From a virus, in IMG/VR virus record IMGVR_UViG_3300045988_040573: 41,536 bases of DNA; one strand, 5' to 3'. Position numbers and translations under genes: made by a program. Position 1 is the stretch's first letter. Every line of letters begins with the position of its first letter. The notes below the pieces were generated by a model that saw only the letters and a list, made by a program, of their open reading frames with translations, was not told the origin of the DNA and made no database searches. Below, piece by piece: positions 5,240 to 19,008 of this stretch.

Positions 5240-5312
5240 GCTGGATTATCTCAAGTGGTAGAGAACCTGTTTTGTAATCAGGGGGTTCTGGGTTCAAGTC
5301 CTCGATTCAGCA
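5240..5312 (+). tRNA. tRNA-Thr (anticodon UGU), CCA encoded at 5313-5315
   Basis: 73-nt cloverleaf. Acceptor stem gctggat/attcagc (7 bp, one G-U). D arm tctc-aagtggta-gaga. Anticodon arm cctgt-ttTGTaa-tcagg (31:39 U-U). T arm ctggg-ttcaagt-cctcg (one mismatch). Discriminator A followed by CCA. Confidence 0.75.
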
Positions 5313-5532
5313 CCAATGCCGATGATACGGGTAAAGATAGCAGGGCCGGACGCGGCAATTGTGTTCCCCGTTAGGCAACCGCCATACGCCTACTAACAGT
5401 GCGTACCATGTGGCGGATTCTGAACAGGCTTATGCTGGTATGGCTTGCCAAAGAAACTTGCAAGACAGAATGCATGAGCCTTATTTTTTAGATGTTCCCG
5501 ACATTTATGTCGGGGAGAAAGGATGGAGACCT

Positions 5533-5850
5533 ATGCCGTATGTTCCTGTCGGCGCTATCGTTGGAGCAATCCATATGCAGAACACGATTTCCAGACACCG
5601 TCGTGAGGAAGAGGAAGAAGCCAAGAAAAAAGAGGAAAAGCCGAAAAGCAAGCAGGATGTGATGCCTATGTATTTCAGGAAAAAGCCGGTTGTCATTGAA
5701 GCGTACCAGACGTGGGAAGAACTTGATATTTTTACGCTTGAAGGCGTTATGCACGCTGCTCCCGGTGACTGGATTATCACTGGTGTGAACGGTGAACAGT
5801 ATCCGTGCAAGCCGGACATCTTTGAAAAGACATACGAGCCTGTAGAGTGA
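5533..5850 (+). CDS. Small phage protein (hydrophobic N-terminus, E/K-rich linker, conserved C-terminal domain)
   Basis: RBS gagaaaggatgg lies 5-8 nt before ATG 5533. The C-terminal [13 protein letters not shown]...[28 protein letters not shown] looks like a recurrent small phage domain. The N-terminal 58 codons of the listed ORF 5359.. look non-coding. Confidence 0.55.
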
Positions 5851-5998
5851 ACAGATCGCGGCAAGCCTCTGGTGCACGCAACTTGCAAAAGCGTGCAAGT
5901 TTGTAACAAGTTTCTGAATATAAGACGGTAATGCGTTGAATGGTAACTTGCTTGTAACTTGCACACCGTGCAACACGCGCAACTGCCGCGCCTTATAT

Positions 5999-6066
5999 GC
6001 CAACATAGCTTAACTGGTAAAGCAGGGCCGTTAGGCTCAGTTCCGGGTTCAAGTCCCGCTGTTGGA
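5999..6066 (+). ncRNA. tRNA-like element with a 4-nt loop in place of the anticodon loop (aberrant or pseudo tRNA)
   Basis: Acceptor stem gccaaca/tgttgga (6 bp plus a 1:72 G-A). D arm gctt-aactggta-aagc. Stem gggcc/ggctc encloses only gtta. T arm ccggg-ttcaagt-cccgc. Total 68 nt, with no encoded CCA. Confidence 0.4.
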
Positions 6067-6426
6067 TAAAGCTGGGTCGCACCCACCGGCTAAGCCCGGC
6101 GCAGGCAAAACGCGATAGATAACCTAAACGCTGTAAGCAAAGCGGCAAGCCGATTAGGAGCGCGGCGCGATGGCAGACCGCAACGGGACTTCGAGAGCCT
6201 GAAAAAGTCTGCTCGGCATCTGCTTGTGCGGACTCCGTTACTGACGCAGTTACGCATCGCCGGAACCCATAATATCAAAGCAGAGACCGCGACCAGCGGA
6301 CGGGATATAAATAACGCTGGATTACGTTGCGGATTTGCTCCCCGCAACGGGTGAGGTCGGCACAGCATACACCGACAGGGCGGGAACGCGCTTTTCCTCC
6401 GGCGCAAAGGGGGTTTGGGGGATATA

Positions 6427-6455
6427 AGCCTACACAAATTGTGTGGGCTTTTTGT
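6427..6455 (+). terminator. Rho-independent terminator closing the RNA island
   Basis: 9-bp stem aagcctacac / gtgtgggctt with a 5-nt loop, followed by a TTTTT run. It lies about 20 nt upstream of the terS start. Confidence 0.75.
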
Positions 6456-6476
6456 ATTGTAAGGCGAGGTGATAAA

Positions 6477-6902
6477 GTGGCATCAAGAAAAAATCCGGTG
6501 GGCGCACCACCTAAATACAGAAGCGTAAAGGCAATGCAAGAAAAGATTGATGCCTACTTTGAAGCCTGCAAAGGACAGCCGTTCTTAGACGATAACGGCG
6601 AACCGATGCGAAATAAAAACGGCTATATCATCTATGACGATAAAAAGCCGCCTACTGTGACAGGGTTGGCGCTTGCACTTGGTTTTGCATCAAGGCAGGC
6701 GCTTTTGAATTACCAAAATAAACCAGAGTTCAATGACACGATTACGCGTGCAAAGACCCGTTGTGAACAGTACGCCGAAGAAAGACTATATGACAAAGAG
6801 GGCTCAGGCGGCGCACAGTTCAGCTTGCGGGCAAATTTCGGATGGCAGGATAAGCCGGAACAACAGCAGGATAGCGAGGTGCTAATCATAGATGACTTGT
6901 AA
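6477..6902 (+). CDS. Terminase small subunit
   Basis: GTG start with RBS aggcgaggtga. PTVTGLALALGFASRQALLNYQ (HTH) and the FSLRANFGWQDK block are typical of Firmicutes phage TerS. It lies directly upstream of and overlaps terL. Confidence 0.8.
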   Translation: MASRKNPVGAPPKYRSVKAMQEKIDAYFEACKGQPFLDDNGEPMRNKNGYIIYDDKKPPTVTGLALALGFASRQALLNYQNKPEFNDTITRAKTRCEQYAEERLYDKEGSGGAQFSLRANFGWQDKPEQQQDSEVLIIDDL

Positions 6903-8163
6903 GCTATCTGGCGTTGTTTCCCCTTGCTTCGCAAAAGTCCACCGTGAAATCAAGGCAGGCAATGTAAAAGAGCTTGTCGCAAAGGGCGGGCGCGGCAGTA
7001 CAAAATCCAGCTATATTAGCATAGAGCTAATTTTGCAGCTGATAAAGCATCCGCAATGCCACGCGGCGGTTTTCCGCAAGGTCGGAAACACGCTGCGCAC
7101 AAGCGTGTATGCGCAAATCGTCTGGGCAATCAATGAGCTTGGATTGCACGACCATTTTCGCTGCACGGTCTCCCCGATGGAATGCACCTATTTGCCTACT
7201 GGGCAAAAGGTGCTTTTTTTCGGCGTTGATGACCCCGGCAAGGTAAAGTCAATCAAAGTGCCGTTTGGTTATATCGGCATCTGCTGGTTTGAAGAACTTG
7301 ACCAGTTTGACGGGGAAGAGCAAATCCGAAACGTGGAGCAGTCCTGCTTGCGCGGCGGTGACTGGTTCATTACGTTCAAGAGCTTTAACCCGCCAGCAAT
7401 GGCGCGGAACTGGGCAAACGGCTACGCACTGAAAGCACGCAACGGAAAGATGATACATCATTCCACATACAAAACAACGCCCGCAGAATGGCTCGGGGAG
7501 CGGTTTCTGGCCGATGCTGAATATTTGCAGCGCACAAACGAAACGGCCTACCGACACGAGTATCTGGGCGAGGTTGTCGGTAGCGGCACAGCGGTATTCG
7601 AAAACCTGAAAATTCAACCAATCACAGACGAGCAGTTGAAAACATTCGACAGAATCAAGCGCGGCGTTGACTGGGGCTGGTATCCTGACCCATGGGCATA
7701 CAATGCAATGCACTATGACGCAGCGCGGCGCACGCTGTACATCTTCGATGAGATGACACGGCGTAGGACCAGCAACAGGGACACTGCGCAACTGCTTTTG
7801 GATAAAGGGCTGACACGTGAGGATAAAGTCTGCGCGGATAGCGCCGAGCCAAAGTCCATCGCCGATTACAACAAGTACGGTGTGAAGACATTCCCAGCCA
7901 GAAAAGGGCCAAAGTCTGTTGTATACGGTACAAAGTGGCTGCAGATGCTTGATGCTATTGTAATAGACCCCGTGCGATGCCCGGACACGGCAAAAGAGTT
8001 CAGCGAGTATGAATACGAGCGGGACGGCAAGACGGGGGAAGTACTGGAAGGCTACCCGGATTTGAACAACCATCACATTGACGCAGTGCGGTACGCGATG
8101 GAAAGCACAGCGAACAAGGCGGGAGACACCGCCGAAACCAGATACAAGAGCATTTTCGTGTAA
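6892..8163 (+). CDS. Terminase large subunit (PBSX/XtmB-type)
   Basis: Walker A AKGGRGSTKSS, a Walker B-like ICWFEELDQ, a C-terminal nuclease region with HHIDAVRYA, 423 aa. Confidence 0.9.
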   Translation: MTCKLSGVVSPCFAKVHREIKAGNVKELVAKGGRGSTKSSYISIELILQLIKHPQCHAAVFRKVGNTLRTSVYAQIVWAINELGLHDHFRCTVSPMECTYLPTGQKVLFFGVDDPGKVKSIKVPFGYIGICWFEELDQFDGEEQIRNVEQSCLRGGDWFITFKSFNPPAMARNWANGYALKARNGKMIHHSTYKTTPAEWLGERFLADAEYLQRTNETAYRHEYLGEVVGSGTAVFENLKIQPITDEQLKTFDRIKRGVDWGWYPDPWAYNAMHYDAARRTLYIFDEMTRRRTSNRDTAQLLLDKGLTREDKVCADSAEPKSIADYNKYGVKTFPARKGPKSVVYGTKWLQMLDAIVIDPVRCPDTAKEFSEYEYERDGKTGEVLEGYPDLNNHHIDAVRYAMESTANKAGDTAETRYKSIFV

Positions 8164-8178
8164 AGGCGGTGAGAAGAC

Positions 8179-9522
8179 GTGAAAACATACCAAGATTTTG
8201 TAGCGGTTGGCGAAGACGAAAAGGCCCGCATGAGTTTCATACTTGGCACAATCAATGAGTATAAGGCCGACCATAGCACACGCCTTGCAGCGAACGCAAA
8301 CAAGTATTACCACGGAGAAAACCCTACAATCAACAAATACGAGAAAATCATTTACGACATGCAGGGCAAGGCGCACCGTGACATGTACACGGCAAATCAC
8401 AAGATTGCAAGCAAGTTCTTTGGCTTGGCCGTAGACCAAGAAGTTTCGTATTTGCTGGGCAACGGCGTTTCATTTCAGAAGCCGGAGACAGAAAAGGCGC
8501 TGGGTGCGACGTTTGATGAAGATATTATGGACGCTGCCCGCCATGCTTTGATTGACGGGCAGTCCTTCGTGTTCTGGAATCTCGACCATGTGCAGGTGTT
8601 TGCAGCAGAGGAATTTGTTCCTCTGTACGACGAGGAAGACGGCTCCATTAAAGCCGGAATCCGTTTCTGGCAGGTGGCAGACAATAAGCCGCTGCGCGCC
8701 ACGCTGTACGAGCTTGACGGCTACACAGAGTATCTAAAGCCCAAAAGCGATGATATGGCGATTCTCAAGCCGAAACGCGCCTACAAGTTGAAGCTGCGCA
8801 CCAGCGAGGCAGACGGCACAGAAATTTATGACGGTGAGAACTATCCCGGATTTCCTATTATCCCGCTGAAAAACGGCGAGCAGGCCCACAGCGAGCTACA
8901 GGGAAGACAGAATACCATTGACGCGCTCGACCTTGCTAGCTCCAACATGGTAAACAACGTTGACGAAGGCAACCTGATTTTCTGGGTGTTGACCAACTGC
9001 GGAGGCATGGACGAGCAGGACGATACAAAGTTCATCGAGCGTCTTAAAACGACCCATGTCGCCCACGCTGACGGTGACGAGGGCGCAAAGGCCACGCCAC
9101 AGAGCATCGAAGCTCCGTTCCAAGGCACGCAGGCGACTATTGATATGCTCACAAAGAAGCTATACGAGGACTTCCAGGCGTTTGATTCTGCGGCTGTTAG
9201 CGCTGGGAACCAAACTGCAACGGCTATCAAGGCCAGTTATGTGCCACTCGACCTGAAAACGGACAAATTTGAAAGTTGCGTGACGCGCTGCATTAAGGGC
9301 ATTTTGGCGGTTGCAGGTCTTGATGACGATCCGACATACACGCGCAATCAAATTATCAACAAGCAGGAAGAGGCGCAGACGGTCTTGCTCGGAGCGGAAT
9401 ATTACGACGACGAGTACATCACGCGCAAGCTATTGACCATTCTCGGCGACGCAGACCAGTTTGAGGATTTAATGCGCCGAAAAGCGGCTGAAACGTTAGA
9501 CCGCACGACTGGAAATGAATGA
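8179..9522 (+). CDS. Portal protein
   Basis: 447-aa ORF immediately after terL. Its size, acidic composition and synteny fit SPP1-type portals. Confidence 0.7.
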   Translation: MKTYQDFVAVGEDEKARMSFILGTINEYKADHSTRLAANANKYYHGENPTINKYEKIIYDMQGKAHRDMYTANHKIASKFFGLAVDQEVSYLLGNGVSFQKPETEKALGATFDEDIMDAARHALIDGQSFVFWNLDHVQVFAAEEFVPLYDEEDGSIKAGIRFWQVADNKPLRATLYELDGYTEYLKPKSDDMAILKPKRAYKLKLRTSEADGTEIYDGENYPGFPIIPLKNGEQAHSELQGRQNTIDALDLASSNMVNNVDEGNLIFWVLTNCGGMDEQDDTKFIERLKTTHVAHADGDEGAKATPQSIEAPFQGTQATIDMLTKKLYEDFQAFDSAAVSAGNQTATAIKASYVPLDLKTDKFESCVTRCIKGILAVAGLDDDPTYTRNQIINKQEEAQTVLLGAEYYDDEYITRKLLTILGDADQFEDLMRRKAAETLDRTTGNE

Positions 9523-16398: not shown

Positions 16399-16943
16399 GT
16401 GGACGTATTTGACCTTTTCGCAAAAATCACGCTGGATTCCAGCGAATACGAGAAAGGCTTGAAAAATGCGAAAAGCAGCGCAAGCGGATTAACAGGACTG
16501 TTCGGAAAGGTTGGTTCAGCCGCTTCAACAGTTGGAAAAGGCATCTTTAACGTTGCTACGAACGTTGCGAAAGTATCCGTTGCCGCTACTACGGCAGGCG
16601 CAACAGCAATTTCGGCGTTGACAGGACTTGCAATTAACAGTTATGCAGATTACGAGCAGCTTGTAGGCGGCGTTGAAACGCTGTATAAAACTAGCGCCGA
16701 TAAAGTTCAGCAGTATGCAGCCGATGCGTACAAAACGGCTGGACTTTCGGCAAACGAGTACATGAACACGGCAACTACATTTGCAGCAGCGCTTGTGTCT
16801 AGTCTGGGGGGCGATACGGAACAGGCGGCAGAGCTTGCCAATACTGCCATTGGTGACATGTCCGACAATGCCAACAAAATGGGAACGGACATGGAGAGCA
16901 TCCAGAATGCTTATAATGGCTTTAGCAAGCAGAATTACACGAT
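16399..16943 (+). CDS. Tape measure protein, exon 1
   Basis: GTG start coupled to the upstream stop. Ends ...IQNAYNGFSKQNYT plus the first two nt (AT) of a Met codon. The unspliced frame stops 7 codons later. Confidence 0.75.
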
Positions 16944-17813
16944 AAATCTAATGTCCGCTGCATAAGTGATTATGCAGTGAGCGTGCGTGAACCTACCACG
17001 GGTGTGCAACTGAAAAGGCGGCAGGAAATGGCTGCATGAGACAGTTGTGCTAACAGGGGAAACCTAAACTGTTTATGGCTTTTACAGCATGGTTATCCTG
17101 TGCCAAACTATGCTATATCAAAGTTACACTTGCAAAGCAGGTGAAATTGCGATATAATACAAAGTATAGAAGGTCAAACGACTATCGGTTCGTCACCGAG
17201 TACAACGCCTATTGGTACGGAGTTGGAAGTGCGCACCAACTTTTTTTGAAAGGATTAAAAGCCGTGGAGATTTGGAAACAGATTCCCGATTTACCGGGAT
17301 ACTCAGTCAGCAATAAGGGCAGAGTTAAGAAAGATAGCACCGGACAAATAATGGTGCTTAGCAAAAATGGTGGATATTGCAGGATTACAATATCTAAGCA
17401 TGTACACCGTCTTGTTGCTGATGCTTTTCTTGAAAAACCAGAGAACAAAGAAAAGTGCTGGGTTGACCACATAGACGGGAATCGCTCAAACAATGACGTT
17501 TCTAATTTAAGATGGGTGACGCCTTCTGAAAACGCACTGTCGTATGGGTATCATTCCAGAATTAAAAATAAGAAACGTCCGGTAAGGGCAACACATCTCG
17601 ACGGCAGGACAATCCTATTTGAATCCAGACAAGCGGCGGCTGAATACTTTCACTGTTCTGACAGTGAAATTAAGTACAACAGTCGATACCGCAAGAGAAA
17701 TAAAAAAGGCTGGATTTTTGAAAAAGTTGAAGATATAGTCTAATCCCTTAAAAGCCATGTGCGGAAACGCGCGTGGCTTTTTATAATACCGGGAAACCGG
17801 GGGTAACAAAATG
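16944..17813 (+). mobile_element. Group-I-like intron (870 nt) with an embedded HNH homing endonuclease gene
   Basis: It interrupts the conserved TMP motif QNYT|MLDNLKLGYGG. The exon base before the 5' splice site is U and the last intron base is G. The segment is AT-rich. GAAA-tetraloop hairpins lie at 17751-17780 and 17789-17800. Confidence 0.65.
17264..17743 (+). CDS. HNH homing endonuclease (NUMOD4-like N-terminus)
   Basis: VEIWKQIPDLPGYSVSNKGRVKK (NUMOD4-like), then VHRLVADAF...VDHIDGNRSNNDVSNLRWVTPSEN (HNH). GTG start after RBS aaagga. Confidence 0.8.
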   Translation: MEIWKQIPDLPGYSVSNKGRVKKDSTGQIMVLSKNGGYCRITISKHVHRLVADAFLEKPENKEKCWVDHIDGNRSNNDVSNLRWVTPSENALSYGYHSRIKNKKRPVRATHLDGRTILFESRQAAAEYFHCSDSEIKYNSRYRKRNKKGWIFEKVEDIV

Positions 17814-19008
17814 GTTAGACAACCTAAAACTCGGCTATGGCGGAACAAAACAGGAAATGCAGCGTCTACTTGATGACGCAAACAAGCTGAACGCCGCGCA
17901 GGGAAACTATACCAATTACACCATTAACAGCTATGCGGACGTTGTAAGCGCGATTCATGATGTTCAAAACGCAATGGGCATTACTGGTACGACCTCTAAA
18001 GAAGCATCCACAACGATTCAAGGAAGTGTGAACGCTACAAAATCCGCATGGTCAAACCTTGTAACTGGAATTGCCGATGATAATGCCAATTTTGAGCAGC
18101 TTATCAGCAACTTTGTGGATAGCGCAACTACAGCGGCAAGTAACATCCTTCCCCGAATAGAAGTCGCCCTGAACGGCGCTGCTAAGCTGATAGAGAGCCT
18201 TGTCCCTCCCATCATGGCAGAGCTGCCGAGCTTGATTGAAACCGTTCTGCCGCAGCTGGCACAGTCTGCCGTGAACATCGTGCAGACGCTTGTTACGGGA
18301 ATCAGCGCAAACGCGGCGCAACTTATTGATTCGGCAATTCAGATTATAACCGTGCTTGGAAACGGCATCTATCAAATGCTGCCAACCGTTGCACAATCTG
18401 CATTGCAAATCGTCTTGACGCTGGTTTCAAAGCTAAATGAGAACTTGCCGCAGATGCTCGACACTGCCGGACAAATGCTGATTGCGTTTGTAGAGGGCGT
18501 TTCGGAACACTTGCCGGACATTATGCTTGCCGCTGCATCTATCGTGGAGACCCTTCTGACCTACTTTATAGAGCATTTGCCGGACATTGTAGAAGGTGCA
18601 ATGCAGATGGGCGACGCGGTCATTGATGGCATTATTGACGGCATTTCGGCAGCTTGGGACAGCCTTGTCAGCTGGTTTAATGGTTTGTGGAACAACCTGT
18701 TCGGAAACCGCTCTGTTAATGTTGATGTCAACAGTAGTGGCACAGATGGCAGTCACGCAGGTGGCCTTGATTATGTACCGTATGACAACTATATTGCCAA
18801 CCTGCATCGCGGCGAGATGGTGCTTACAAGCGCAGAGGCGACGCAATACCGTAAAGGCAACGAAAACGCGGCTGGCGGTATGACGATCAACATCGATATT
18901 AACGGTATTCAGTTTTCCGATGTGAATTCTATGGCACATGCGCTGGCGAATCAGATTTCGTATGAGCTTCAGGCGCAAAGCAACAGAAAGGCGGCTGTAT
19001 ATGCTTAA
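17814..19008 (+). CDS. Tape measure protein, exon 2
   Basis: The first G completes the ATG codon. It then reads LDNLKLGYGGTKQEMQRLLDDANKL and long alpha-helical repeats. Exon 1 plus exon 2 is 1740 nt, giving 579 aa. Confidence 0.75.

Follow-up and report, generated by a model that had tools for sequence, protein, structure and literature searches.

A probable mobile group I intron carrying an HNH endonuclease gene in the tape-measure gene of a siphophage

Introduction

The DNA analysed here is a viral stretch of 41,536 nt (IMG/VR record IMGVR_UViG_3300045988_040573; hereafter the window), in which two open reading frames (ORFs) resembling parts of a phage tape-measure protein (TMP) are separated by a gene for an HNH-type endonuclease. 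The locus raises the question of whether its TMP is made as two fragments or from a single gene whose transcript loses the intervening DNA. It is highly probable that positions 16944-17813 are a mobile group I intron that resembles the IA2 introns of phages and interrupts codon Met-182 of a siphophage TMP gene. The exact boundaries of the insert, the reading frame restored by joining its flanks, a covarying fold, the endonuclease domains and a presence/absence polymorphism between near-identical genomes are established. The parts of the interrupted gene are as follows.

16399-16943, + strand: TMP gene exon 1, with codons 1-181 complete and the first two bases of codon Met-182; identical to positions 5721-6265 of the intron-less contig L001
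16944-17813, + strand: predicted group I intron (IA2-like), 870 nt; recognised as an insertion relative to L001 and by covariation in 21 relatives
17814-19008, + strand: TMP gene exon 2, identical to L001:6266-7460; its first 6 nt, GUUAGA, are the exon strand of the proposed helix P10

A precise insertion in the tape-measure gene

The initial annotation of this locus had proposed a TMP gene split by a group I-like intron, and its account of the two coding pieces is borne out. ORF 16399..16965 reads to ...NAYNGFSKQNYT and then runs through 7 unrelated codons (INLMSAA) to a stop, WLDNLKLGYGGTKQEMQRLL is present in ORF 17773..19008, and the joining of t16943 to g17814 restores an ATG and a 1,740-nt frame of 579 aa, in which the insertion point is nt 545, within the Met-182 codon. 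Exon 1 ends in U and the insert in G, as had been pointed out, and the same holds for 21/21 distinct relatives. The insert had also been described as AT-rich; its GC content (42.5 %) is indeed lower than that of the exons (48.6 % and 49.0 %) and of the whole window (51.2 %), but just moderately so.

The alignment with intron-less homologues that had been suggested as a check was carried out, and these homologues are contiguous precisely at the proposed junction, at nucleotide resolution. Relative to the intron-less allele in L001 (Logan contig SRR29718516_2071), the 870-nt insert is exactly 16944-17813: L001 matches the joined exons (16399-16943 plus 17814-19008) with 0 mismatches over 1,740 nt (100 % identity), the blastn breakpoints between the window and L001 fall at 16943/17814, and the flanks of L001 are 99.98 % identical to the window over 6,265 nt upstream and 99.5 % over 6,422 nt downstream. 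This resemblance of the insert-free allele to the joined exons is not due to chance. Only 16944-17813 fits as the inserted segment, since neither end can be shifted by a base: T (16943) does not match G (17813), nor does A (16944) match G (17814). The intron-less junction reads ...AATTACACGATGTTAGACAACC... in DNA of the L001 type and ...ACAATGCTGGAC... in DNA of the type of a second contig, L002 (Logan contig SRR19145078_15092).

The proteins agree with the DNA. Among 5.8 billion proteins searched is P0001, an uninterrupted protein of 579 aa that is encoded in L001 and has 100 % identity to the predicted spliced product, and the 120 best-scoring of at least 8,000 TMP homologues, at 95-100 % identity, are all uninterrupted; the NCBI name of the TMP protein is 'Gemmiger sp.'. 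The spliced protein matches the TMP families PHROG 6900, 991 and 3981, with tblastn matches to annotated TMPs, and the profile of PHROG 6900 aligns residues 3-230 in one stretch that spans the junction. A Prophage_tail gene lies downstream of the TMP gene in L001.

A different explanation would be that the TMP is truly split by a free-standing HNH cassette without RNA splicing, its halves being translated apart and assembling in trans, as the halves of some endonuclease-split phage genes do. Public records annotate the arrangement as TMP / HNH endonuclease / TMP (for example in the Lactococcus phages 38502 and 28201), and in the window translation of a 411-aa fragment could begin at GTG 17773, which is in frame. 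However, no in-frame start precedes exon 2 in 14/19 distinct relatives, and the break splits a codon of the most conserved TMP motif. Inteins, group II introns and translational bypass have nothing in their favour but the fact that the gene is interrupted, and all three were ruled out from the sequence itself: the insert is out of frame and meets a stop after 7 codons, it holds no reverse transcriptase or domain V and has no group II match in Rfam, and its 870 nt far exceed the known translational bypass gaps. The probability of this last group of explanations is negligible.

Relatives of the insert and a covarying group I fold

Relatives of the insert were gathered via the string AAGGTCAAACGACTATCGG, which was found in 44 viral contigs; in about 38 of the 44 the element stands at the same TMP position, with 70-98 % identity, and copies of the element also occur in metagenome-assembled genomes labelled Oscillospiraceae, Gemella and Collinsella. 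Three relatives are ORF-less, namely L046 (315 nt), L020 (342 nt) and L016 (340 nt). The alignment behind the fold, A1, comprises 21 distinct ORF-trimmed sequences with the derived secondary structure encoded. No second copy was found within the window by an nhmmer profile of A1 and the core motifs, and Megablast against phage records gave a short HNH match only. At L006:4583-4601, L032:2618-2636 and L047:1159-1177, all in viral contigs, the J6/7-P7-P7.1 string alone is common with the window intron; these contigs seem to carry a group I-like element that is unrelated and lies in another gene, with no Rfam call at the gathering threshold.

A scan with the Rfam group I intron model RF00028, the other computational check that had been suggested, aligned two fragments of the insert, but their scores of 11.3 and 18.7 bits are far under the gathering threshold of 50 bits, at which the window has no group I match. 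Under lax thresholds the first fragment, 17053-17184, corresponds to model positions 60-148 (P4-P6, J6/7 and P7), and the second is the stretch with GAAGAUAUAGUCUAAUC (J8/7 and the 3' strand of P7). RF00028 also misses the ORF-less relatives, the 315-nt L046 having no match even at E <= 1, and the sub-threshold score reflects weakness of the model for this intron lineage. With RF00028 sub-threshold or silent, ORF-less relatives included, comparative analysis was therefore used. It supports the group I reading by a covarying core with a P3/P7 pseudoknot, P4-P6, P7.1/P7.2, P8 and P9. The helices modelled are P1/P10, P2, P3, P3.1-3.3, P4-P6, P7, P7.1, P7.2, P8 and P9, the core helices P3-P8 and P4-P6 standing in canonical group I order; apart from P1 and P10, which are given with the splice sites below, their modelled positions are these.

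16958-16977, + strand: P2 hairpin with GUGA loop, strands 16958-16965 and 16970-16977
16983-16988, + strand: P3 5' strand (GUGCGU), pairs with 17231-17236; 100 % of cells paired
16992-17047, + strand: P3.1-P3.3, optional helices between P3 and J3/4
17053-17174, + strand: P4-P5-P6 domain, P6 with a long extension (P6a-c); P5a and P6a covary
17053-17058 and 17096-17101, + strand: P4, 5' and 3' strands
17175-17184, + strand: J6/7 and P7 5' strand (CAAAC-GACUA), invariant in 21/21; fits the RF00028 consensus
17180-17184 and 17736-17740, + strand: P7, 5' and 3' strands
17185-17199, + strand: P7.1, strands 17185-17189 and 17195-17199; invariant
17203-17225, + strand: P7.2, strands 17203-17209 and 17219-17225
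17231-17236, + strand: P3 3' strand (GCGCAC), covaries with 16983-16988
17237-17245, + strand: P8 5' strand (CAACUUUUU), pairs with 17721-17729
17721-17740, + strand: P8 3' strand (17721-17729), J8/7 (17730-17735) and P7 3' strand (17736-17740)
17745-17803, + strand: P9 domain, with P9 (CCC/GGG), P9a (17750-17781) and P9b (17789-17800)

Standard pairs fill 95.7 % of 2,152 cells in A1, against 36-43 % when the partners are slid by 1-3 columns; 61/118 pairs show compensatory changes, that is, changes on both sides, and 0/500 shuffles match any observed measure. Compensatory pairs are found in P2 (7/8), P3 (3/6), P3.1 (2/4), P3.2 (6/6), P3.3 (5/5), P4 (1/6, one pair with four pair types), P5a (3/4), P6a (5/5), P7.2 (5/7), P8 (8/9), P9a (9/14) and P9b (4/4). 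The minimum-free-energy fold of the ORF-trimmed window intron (z = -5.6) independently yields most of the modelled helices. The strings of the guanosine-binding helix, CAAACGACUA (J6/7-P7) and GAAGAUAUAGUCUAAUC (J8/7-P7'), fit the RF00028 consensus and are invariant in 21/21 sequences. P5 holds a motif resembling a GAAA-tetraloop receptor, and the two GAAA-loop hairpins that the initial annotation had seen near the 3' end are real, being P9a and P9b, both of which covary.

In the IA2 subgroup of group I introns, two additional hairpins, P7.1 and P7.2, separate P7 from the 3' strand of P3, and the order P7, P7.1, P7.2, P3', P8 with the P3/P7 pseudoknot in the window intron is the phage IA2 layout. 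P7.1/P7.2 have been named class-defining features (PMC3984707), and an optional pairing 'P3.1', listed in PMC3873408, matches the extra helices between P3 and J3/4.

The fold also bears on separate translation of the two TMP halves. The sub-threshold RF00028 score would suit that explanation, but the non-coding flanks of the ORF, about 390 nt in all, maintain a group I fold with 61 compensatory pairs, which a protein-only cassette does not need, and the ORF-less versions of 315-342 nt still break the gene. A split TMP assembling in trans is thus considered very unlikely, and a group I intron is the preferred reading of the insert.

Two other assignments were tried and rejected. A P3 picked by eye (GUUGUGC 17044-17050 with GUACAAC at about 17201-17207) has a 5' strand that varies in relatives while its partner is constant, and a run of U after 17241, considered as a terminator hairpin, is actually the 5' strand of P8, which pairs with 17721-17729. 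In the P6 extension, the string TCAAAGTTACACTTG at 17124-17138 is similar to the end of exon 1 (GCAGAATTACACGAT); L018, L029, L038 and L040 have CAAAATTA[TC]ACT in its place, with the translation QNYT as in the exon. The exon-like string shows no covariation with the exon of the same locus, and the likeness is possibly chance in A/T-rich sequence.

Splice-site recognition and junction codons

The modelled elements at the splice sites are as follows.

16941-16943, + strand: P1 5' strand, exon GAU; U16943 is the proposed 5' splice-site U, and the strand pairs with GUC 16953-16955
16947-16955, + strand: putative internal guide sequence UCUAAU-GUC, with P10 strand 16947-16952 and P1 strand 16953-16955
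17813, + strand: predicted terminal guanosine (omega-G), the last intron base; G in all relatives

The pairing of P1 with the internal guide sequence had not been spotted by eye. A guide, 5'-UCUAAU-GUC-3' at 16947-16955, can now be proposed, although the P1 that it forms is just 3 bp (GAU/GUC, with a possible additional A·U). Its pairs are G-C, A-U and U·G (U16943·G16953), and its position beside the P10 strand is canonical. Covariation cannot confirm P1 because it is invariant (21/21). P10 would join UCUAAU (16947-16952) to the GUUAGA of exon 2 (17814-17819) by 6 bp, with 93.7 % of cells paired and one compensatory change, from U-A to C-G in the L024 type (exon GCUGGA). An alternative guide, GGUGUG (17001-17006), was rejected, as it leaves an A×G mismatch beside the splice site and has no adjoining P10 strand.

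The junction context of intron-bearing alleles is ACG-AU/G-UUA (here and below, a slash within a sequence marks a splice or insertion point). The Thr codon is ACG in 33/33 intron-bearing loci compared with 34/120 intron-less alleles from viral contigs (Fisher p 4e-15), and the Leu codon is UUA in 27/33 compared with 3/120 (Fisher p 5e-21), both p values ignoring shared ancestry. This codon bias is compatible with P1/P10 pairing being under selection or with neighbouring exon bases being co-converted in homing, both of which are hallmarks of mobile group I introns. The intron-less L002 has just 4 differences from the window exons, all synonymous, 3 of the 4 being at junction positions -3, +2 and +4, and its junction codons are ACA-ATG-CTG. 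Those of L001 are ACG-ATG-TTA, a combination that is rare among intron-less alleles, and such intron-type codons in an intron-less allele suggest a very recent precise loss or gain of the intron.

The endonuclease gene

17264-17743, + strand: predicted homing-endonuclease gene in the P8 loop; 159 aa, NUMOD4 and HNH_3 domains, GTG start

The ORF at 17264..17743 had been described as a NUMOD4/HNH-type endonuclease gene, in agreement with the Pfam matches of its product to HNH_3 (E 1.7e-12) and NUMOD4 (E 6.5e-10); there is also a weak match to NUMOD1 (0.05). The 159-aa protein matches PHROG HNH-endonuclease families, including PHROG 59, and its residues 4-96 align with residues 3-105 of PDB entry 1U3E (E 1.4e-8), which bears the depositors' name 'HNH homing endonuclease' and which we take to be I-HmuI of phage SPO1. 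Hundreds of relatives of the endonuclease, at 70-97 % identity, are present in metagenomes. The GTG start at 17264 has AAAGGA just ahead of it and an ATG at the aligned position in relatives. An upstream ATG at 17075 was rejected as the start, given that the ORF would then run through P5-P7 and that the Pfam domains begin at its residue 65, corresponding to residue 2 when translation begins at the GTG. At the other end, the last 8 codons and the stop (17720-17743) overlap the 3' strand of P8, J8/7 and the 3' strand of P7.

The SPO1 DNA-polymerase intron, which encodes I-HmuI, is alike in being a phage group I intron with an HNH enzyme, the likeness of the proteins covering the N-terminal sheet and the HNH region; it differs from the window intron in host gene and ribozyme sequence. 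I-HmuI is a nicking enzyme, and by analogy we infer endonuclease activity and homing for the predicted HNH protein.

Proposed splicing and homing, and the same intron in cultured phages

We propose that the transcript would fold into the group I core, in which the guide UCUAAU-GUC would align the 5' splice site (U16943·G16953, P1) with the start of exon 2 (P10). An external guanosine would attack 3' of U16943, after which G17813 would enter the P7 pocket and the exons would be ligated into a single mRNA for the 579-aa TMP. Judged from its sequence features, the intron very probably splices. The HNH/NUMOD4 protein, if it acts like I-HmuI, would probably nick or cut intron-less TMP alleles near ACGAT/GTTAGA, and repair from an intron-bearing genome would copy the intron together with adjacent exon bases, which constitutes homing.

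The same intron is present, unannotated, at the same site in two cultured phages, Lactococcus phage 38502 (KX160204) and Streptococcus phage Str-PAP-1 (NC_028666). They share with the window the junction ...KQNYT-M/LDNLKLG, the nucleotide context ACGAT/...G/GTTrGA and the UAAUGUC guide motif, with about 74 % identity over P1-P7.2 and an HNH ORF in the same place; they differ in a short P6, another P9a and more distant HNH proteins. Their database records show a split TMP and an HNH endonuclease only, and in the literature on Str-PAP-1 and lactococcal TMP introns no paper was found that recognises this particular intron.

These phages bear on a further explanation, that the insert is a group I relic that no longer splices and that its carrier is a defective prophage or a phage with an inactivated TMP. 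The 3-bp P1, the end of the ORF overlapping P8, J8/7 and P7, which could disturb folding, and one mismatch each in P7.2 and P3.1 of the window would all suit a relic. On the other side, the core is kept with compensatory changes over 21 variants, the window intron is a few bases away from its nearest relatives with both ORF and core intact, and the same intron occurs in plaque-isolated phages; a dead intron in a defective phage is unlikely because the isolated phages 38502 and Str-PAP-1 carry the same-site intron. We give the relic little credence.

Several points nevertheless weigh against the reading as a mobile group I intron. They are the RF00028 scores so far below threshold and the silence of this model on the ORF-less relatives; the invariance of P1, P6, P7, P7.1 and P9 in A1, which neither supports nor contradicts these helices; the very short P1; the shared ancestry of the loci behind the codon bias; and the intron-less contig L001, which could come from an RNA library, in which case precise excision would still be supported.

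Comparison with known introns

Group I introns in TMP genes are an established kind, known since 2008, because the IA1/IA2 introns TMP-IVS1/2/3 were described at three sites in the TMP genes of B. cereus-group prophages (Tourasse & Kolstø 2008, PMC2504315); the window intron is a new example, not a new phenomenon. Some TMP-IVS introns carry H-N-H or GIY-YIG endonuclease genes, and these introns target the most conserved stretch of the gene, with P1/P10 adapted to the site (PMC2504315). The window intron is thus like them in host gene class, in endonuclease cargo and in the several sites per gene. It differs in its background, which is that of gut Clostridia-type and lactic-acid-bacteria phages rather than Bacillus hosts, and in the size of the TMP, 579 aa against more than 1,200 aa; no detectable sequence relation to the TMP-IVS introns was established.

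The introns of Twort-like staphylococcal phages (such as the intron with IepA in the Twort terminase large-subunit gene) reside in a different host gene. Twort introns are presumably the archetype of IA2. From the 3' strand of P7 through P9 to the 3' end, the ORF-less L046 and the introns of Twort-like phages share 88-94 % identity over 63-67 nt, and in the latter, as in the window, the endonuclease ORF stops just before that 3' stretch. In the 5' half (P1-P4), in contrast, this lineage has no detectable similarity to them.

Other intron sites in the same tape-measure motif

In the coordinates of the spliced window gene, introns occur at three sites, nt 486, nt 545 (the window site) and nt 567. 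Str-PAP-1 (L173, positions 700-2647) has two TMP introns, one after ...DNSNKMG (nt 486), which scores 82 bits with RF00028 and carries a 'homing endonuclease' ORF, and the other at the window site, with its HNH ORF; the record annotates split TMP coding sequences and endonucleases only. L045 is listed with Str-PAP-1 for the two-intron arrangement of the TMP.

The third site, LKLG/YGGT (nt 567), lies 22 nt downstream of the window site and is occupied in Streptococcus phage IPP23, Lactococcus phage 28201, L016 and L020. The insert of IPP23 (L004, about 2131-2407) is ORF-less and scores 64 bits with RF00028; that of 28201 (L003, NC_031013, 1828-2755) has an HNH gene and no Rfam detection. L016 (about 7662-8256) and L020 (5220-5861, oriented) have tandem introns in one TMP gene, the upstream one being an ORF-less window-type intron and the downstream one (232 or 277 nt) standing at LKLG/YGGT; the downstream intron of L016 scores 92 bits with RF00028 (8015-8205). 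A 22-nt micro-exon (GTTAGATAACTTGAAACTGGGT in L016) separates the two introns. Its first 6 nt are the P10 strand of the upstream intron in both contigs, and its last 6 nt form P1 of the downstream intron in L016, the sole downstream P1 aligned by Rfam.

The introns at nt 486 and nt 567 share with that of the window the same conserved N-terminal TMP motif but belong to different ribozyme lineages, and neither is present in the window. On balance we lean towards the view that the window intron represents an uncatalogued IA-type lineage, invisible to Rfam even without its ORF, that specialises on a single codon in the TMP motif of highest conservation, is widespread among siphophages of the gut and of lactic acid bacteria and with the two other lineages makes a three-site hotspot in an 81-nt stretch of the TMP gene; the tandem arrangement could order folding and splicing.

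Other features of the window

The remaining observations concern the region upstream of the TMP gene.

5240-5315, + strand: tRNA-Thr (anticodon UGU), by Rfam and ARAGORN
5999-6067, + strand: weak tRNA-like match, 35.5 bits, by Rfam only
6325-6388, + strand: Rfam D12-methyl RNA motif RF02950, 92 bits (cut-off 57), at the 5' edge of the small-terminase ORF
6327-6902: small-terminase ORF (Pfam GP3_package)
6892-8163: large terminase
8179-9522: SPP1-type portal

Significance

The current understanding of group I introns is unchanged; specific to the window intron are the insertion point at nt 545, the lineage undetectable by RF00028 and the phage background. For annotation, the TMP of the window phage is to be read as one 579-aa protein and not as two fragments with a stray HNH gene, and the published genomes of Lactococcus phages 38502 and 28201 and of Streptococcus phages Str-PAP-1 and IPP23 call for the same correction. 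RF00028 misses this lineage, and metagenomic surveys based on that model therefore undercount phage group I introns. Finally, the presence/absence polymorphism between genomes with an identity of about 99.5 % or higher in the 12.7 kb compared, together with the strong codon bias at the junction, offers a clean natural system of homing and co-conversion in gut phages.

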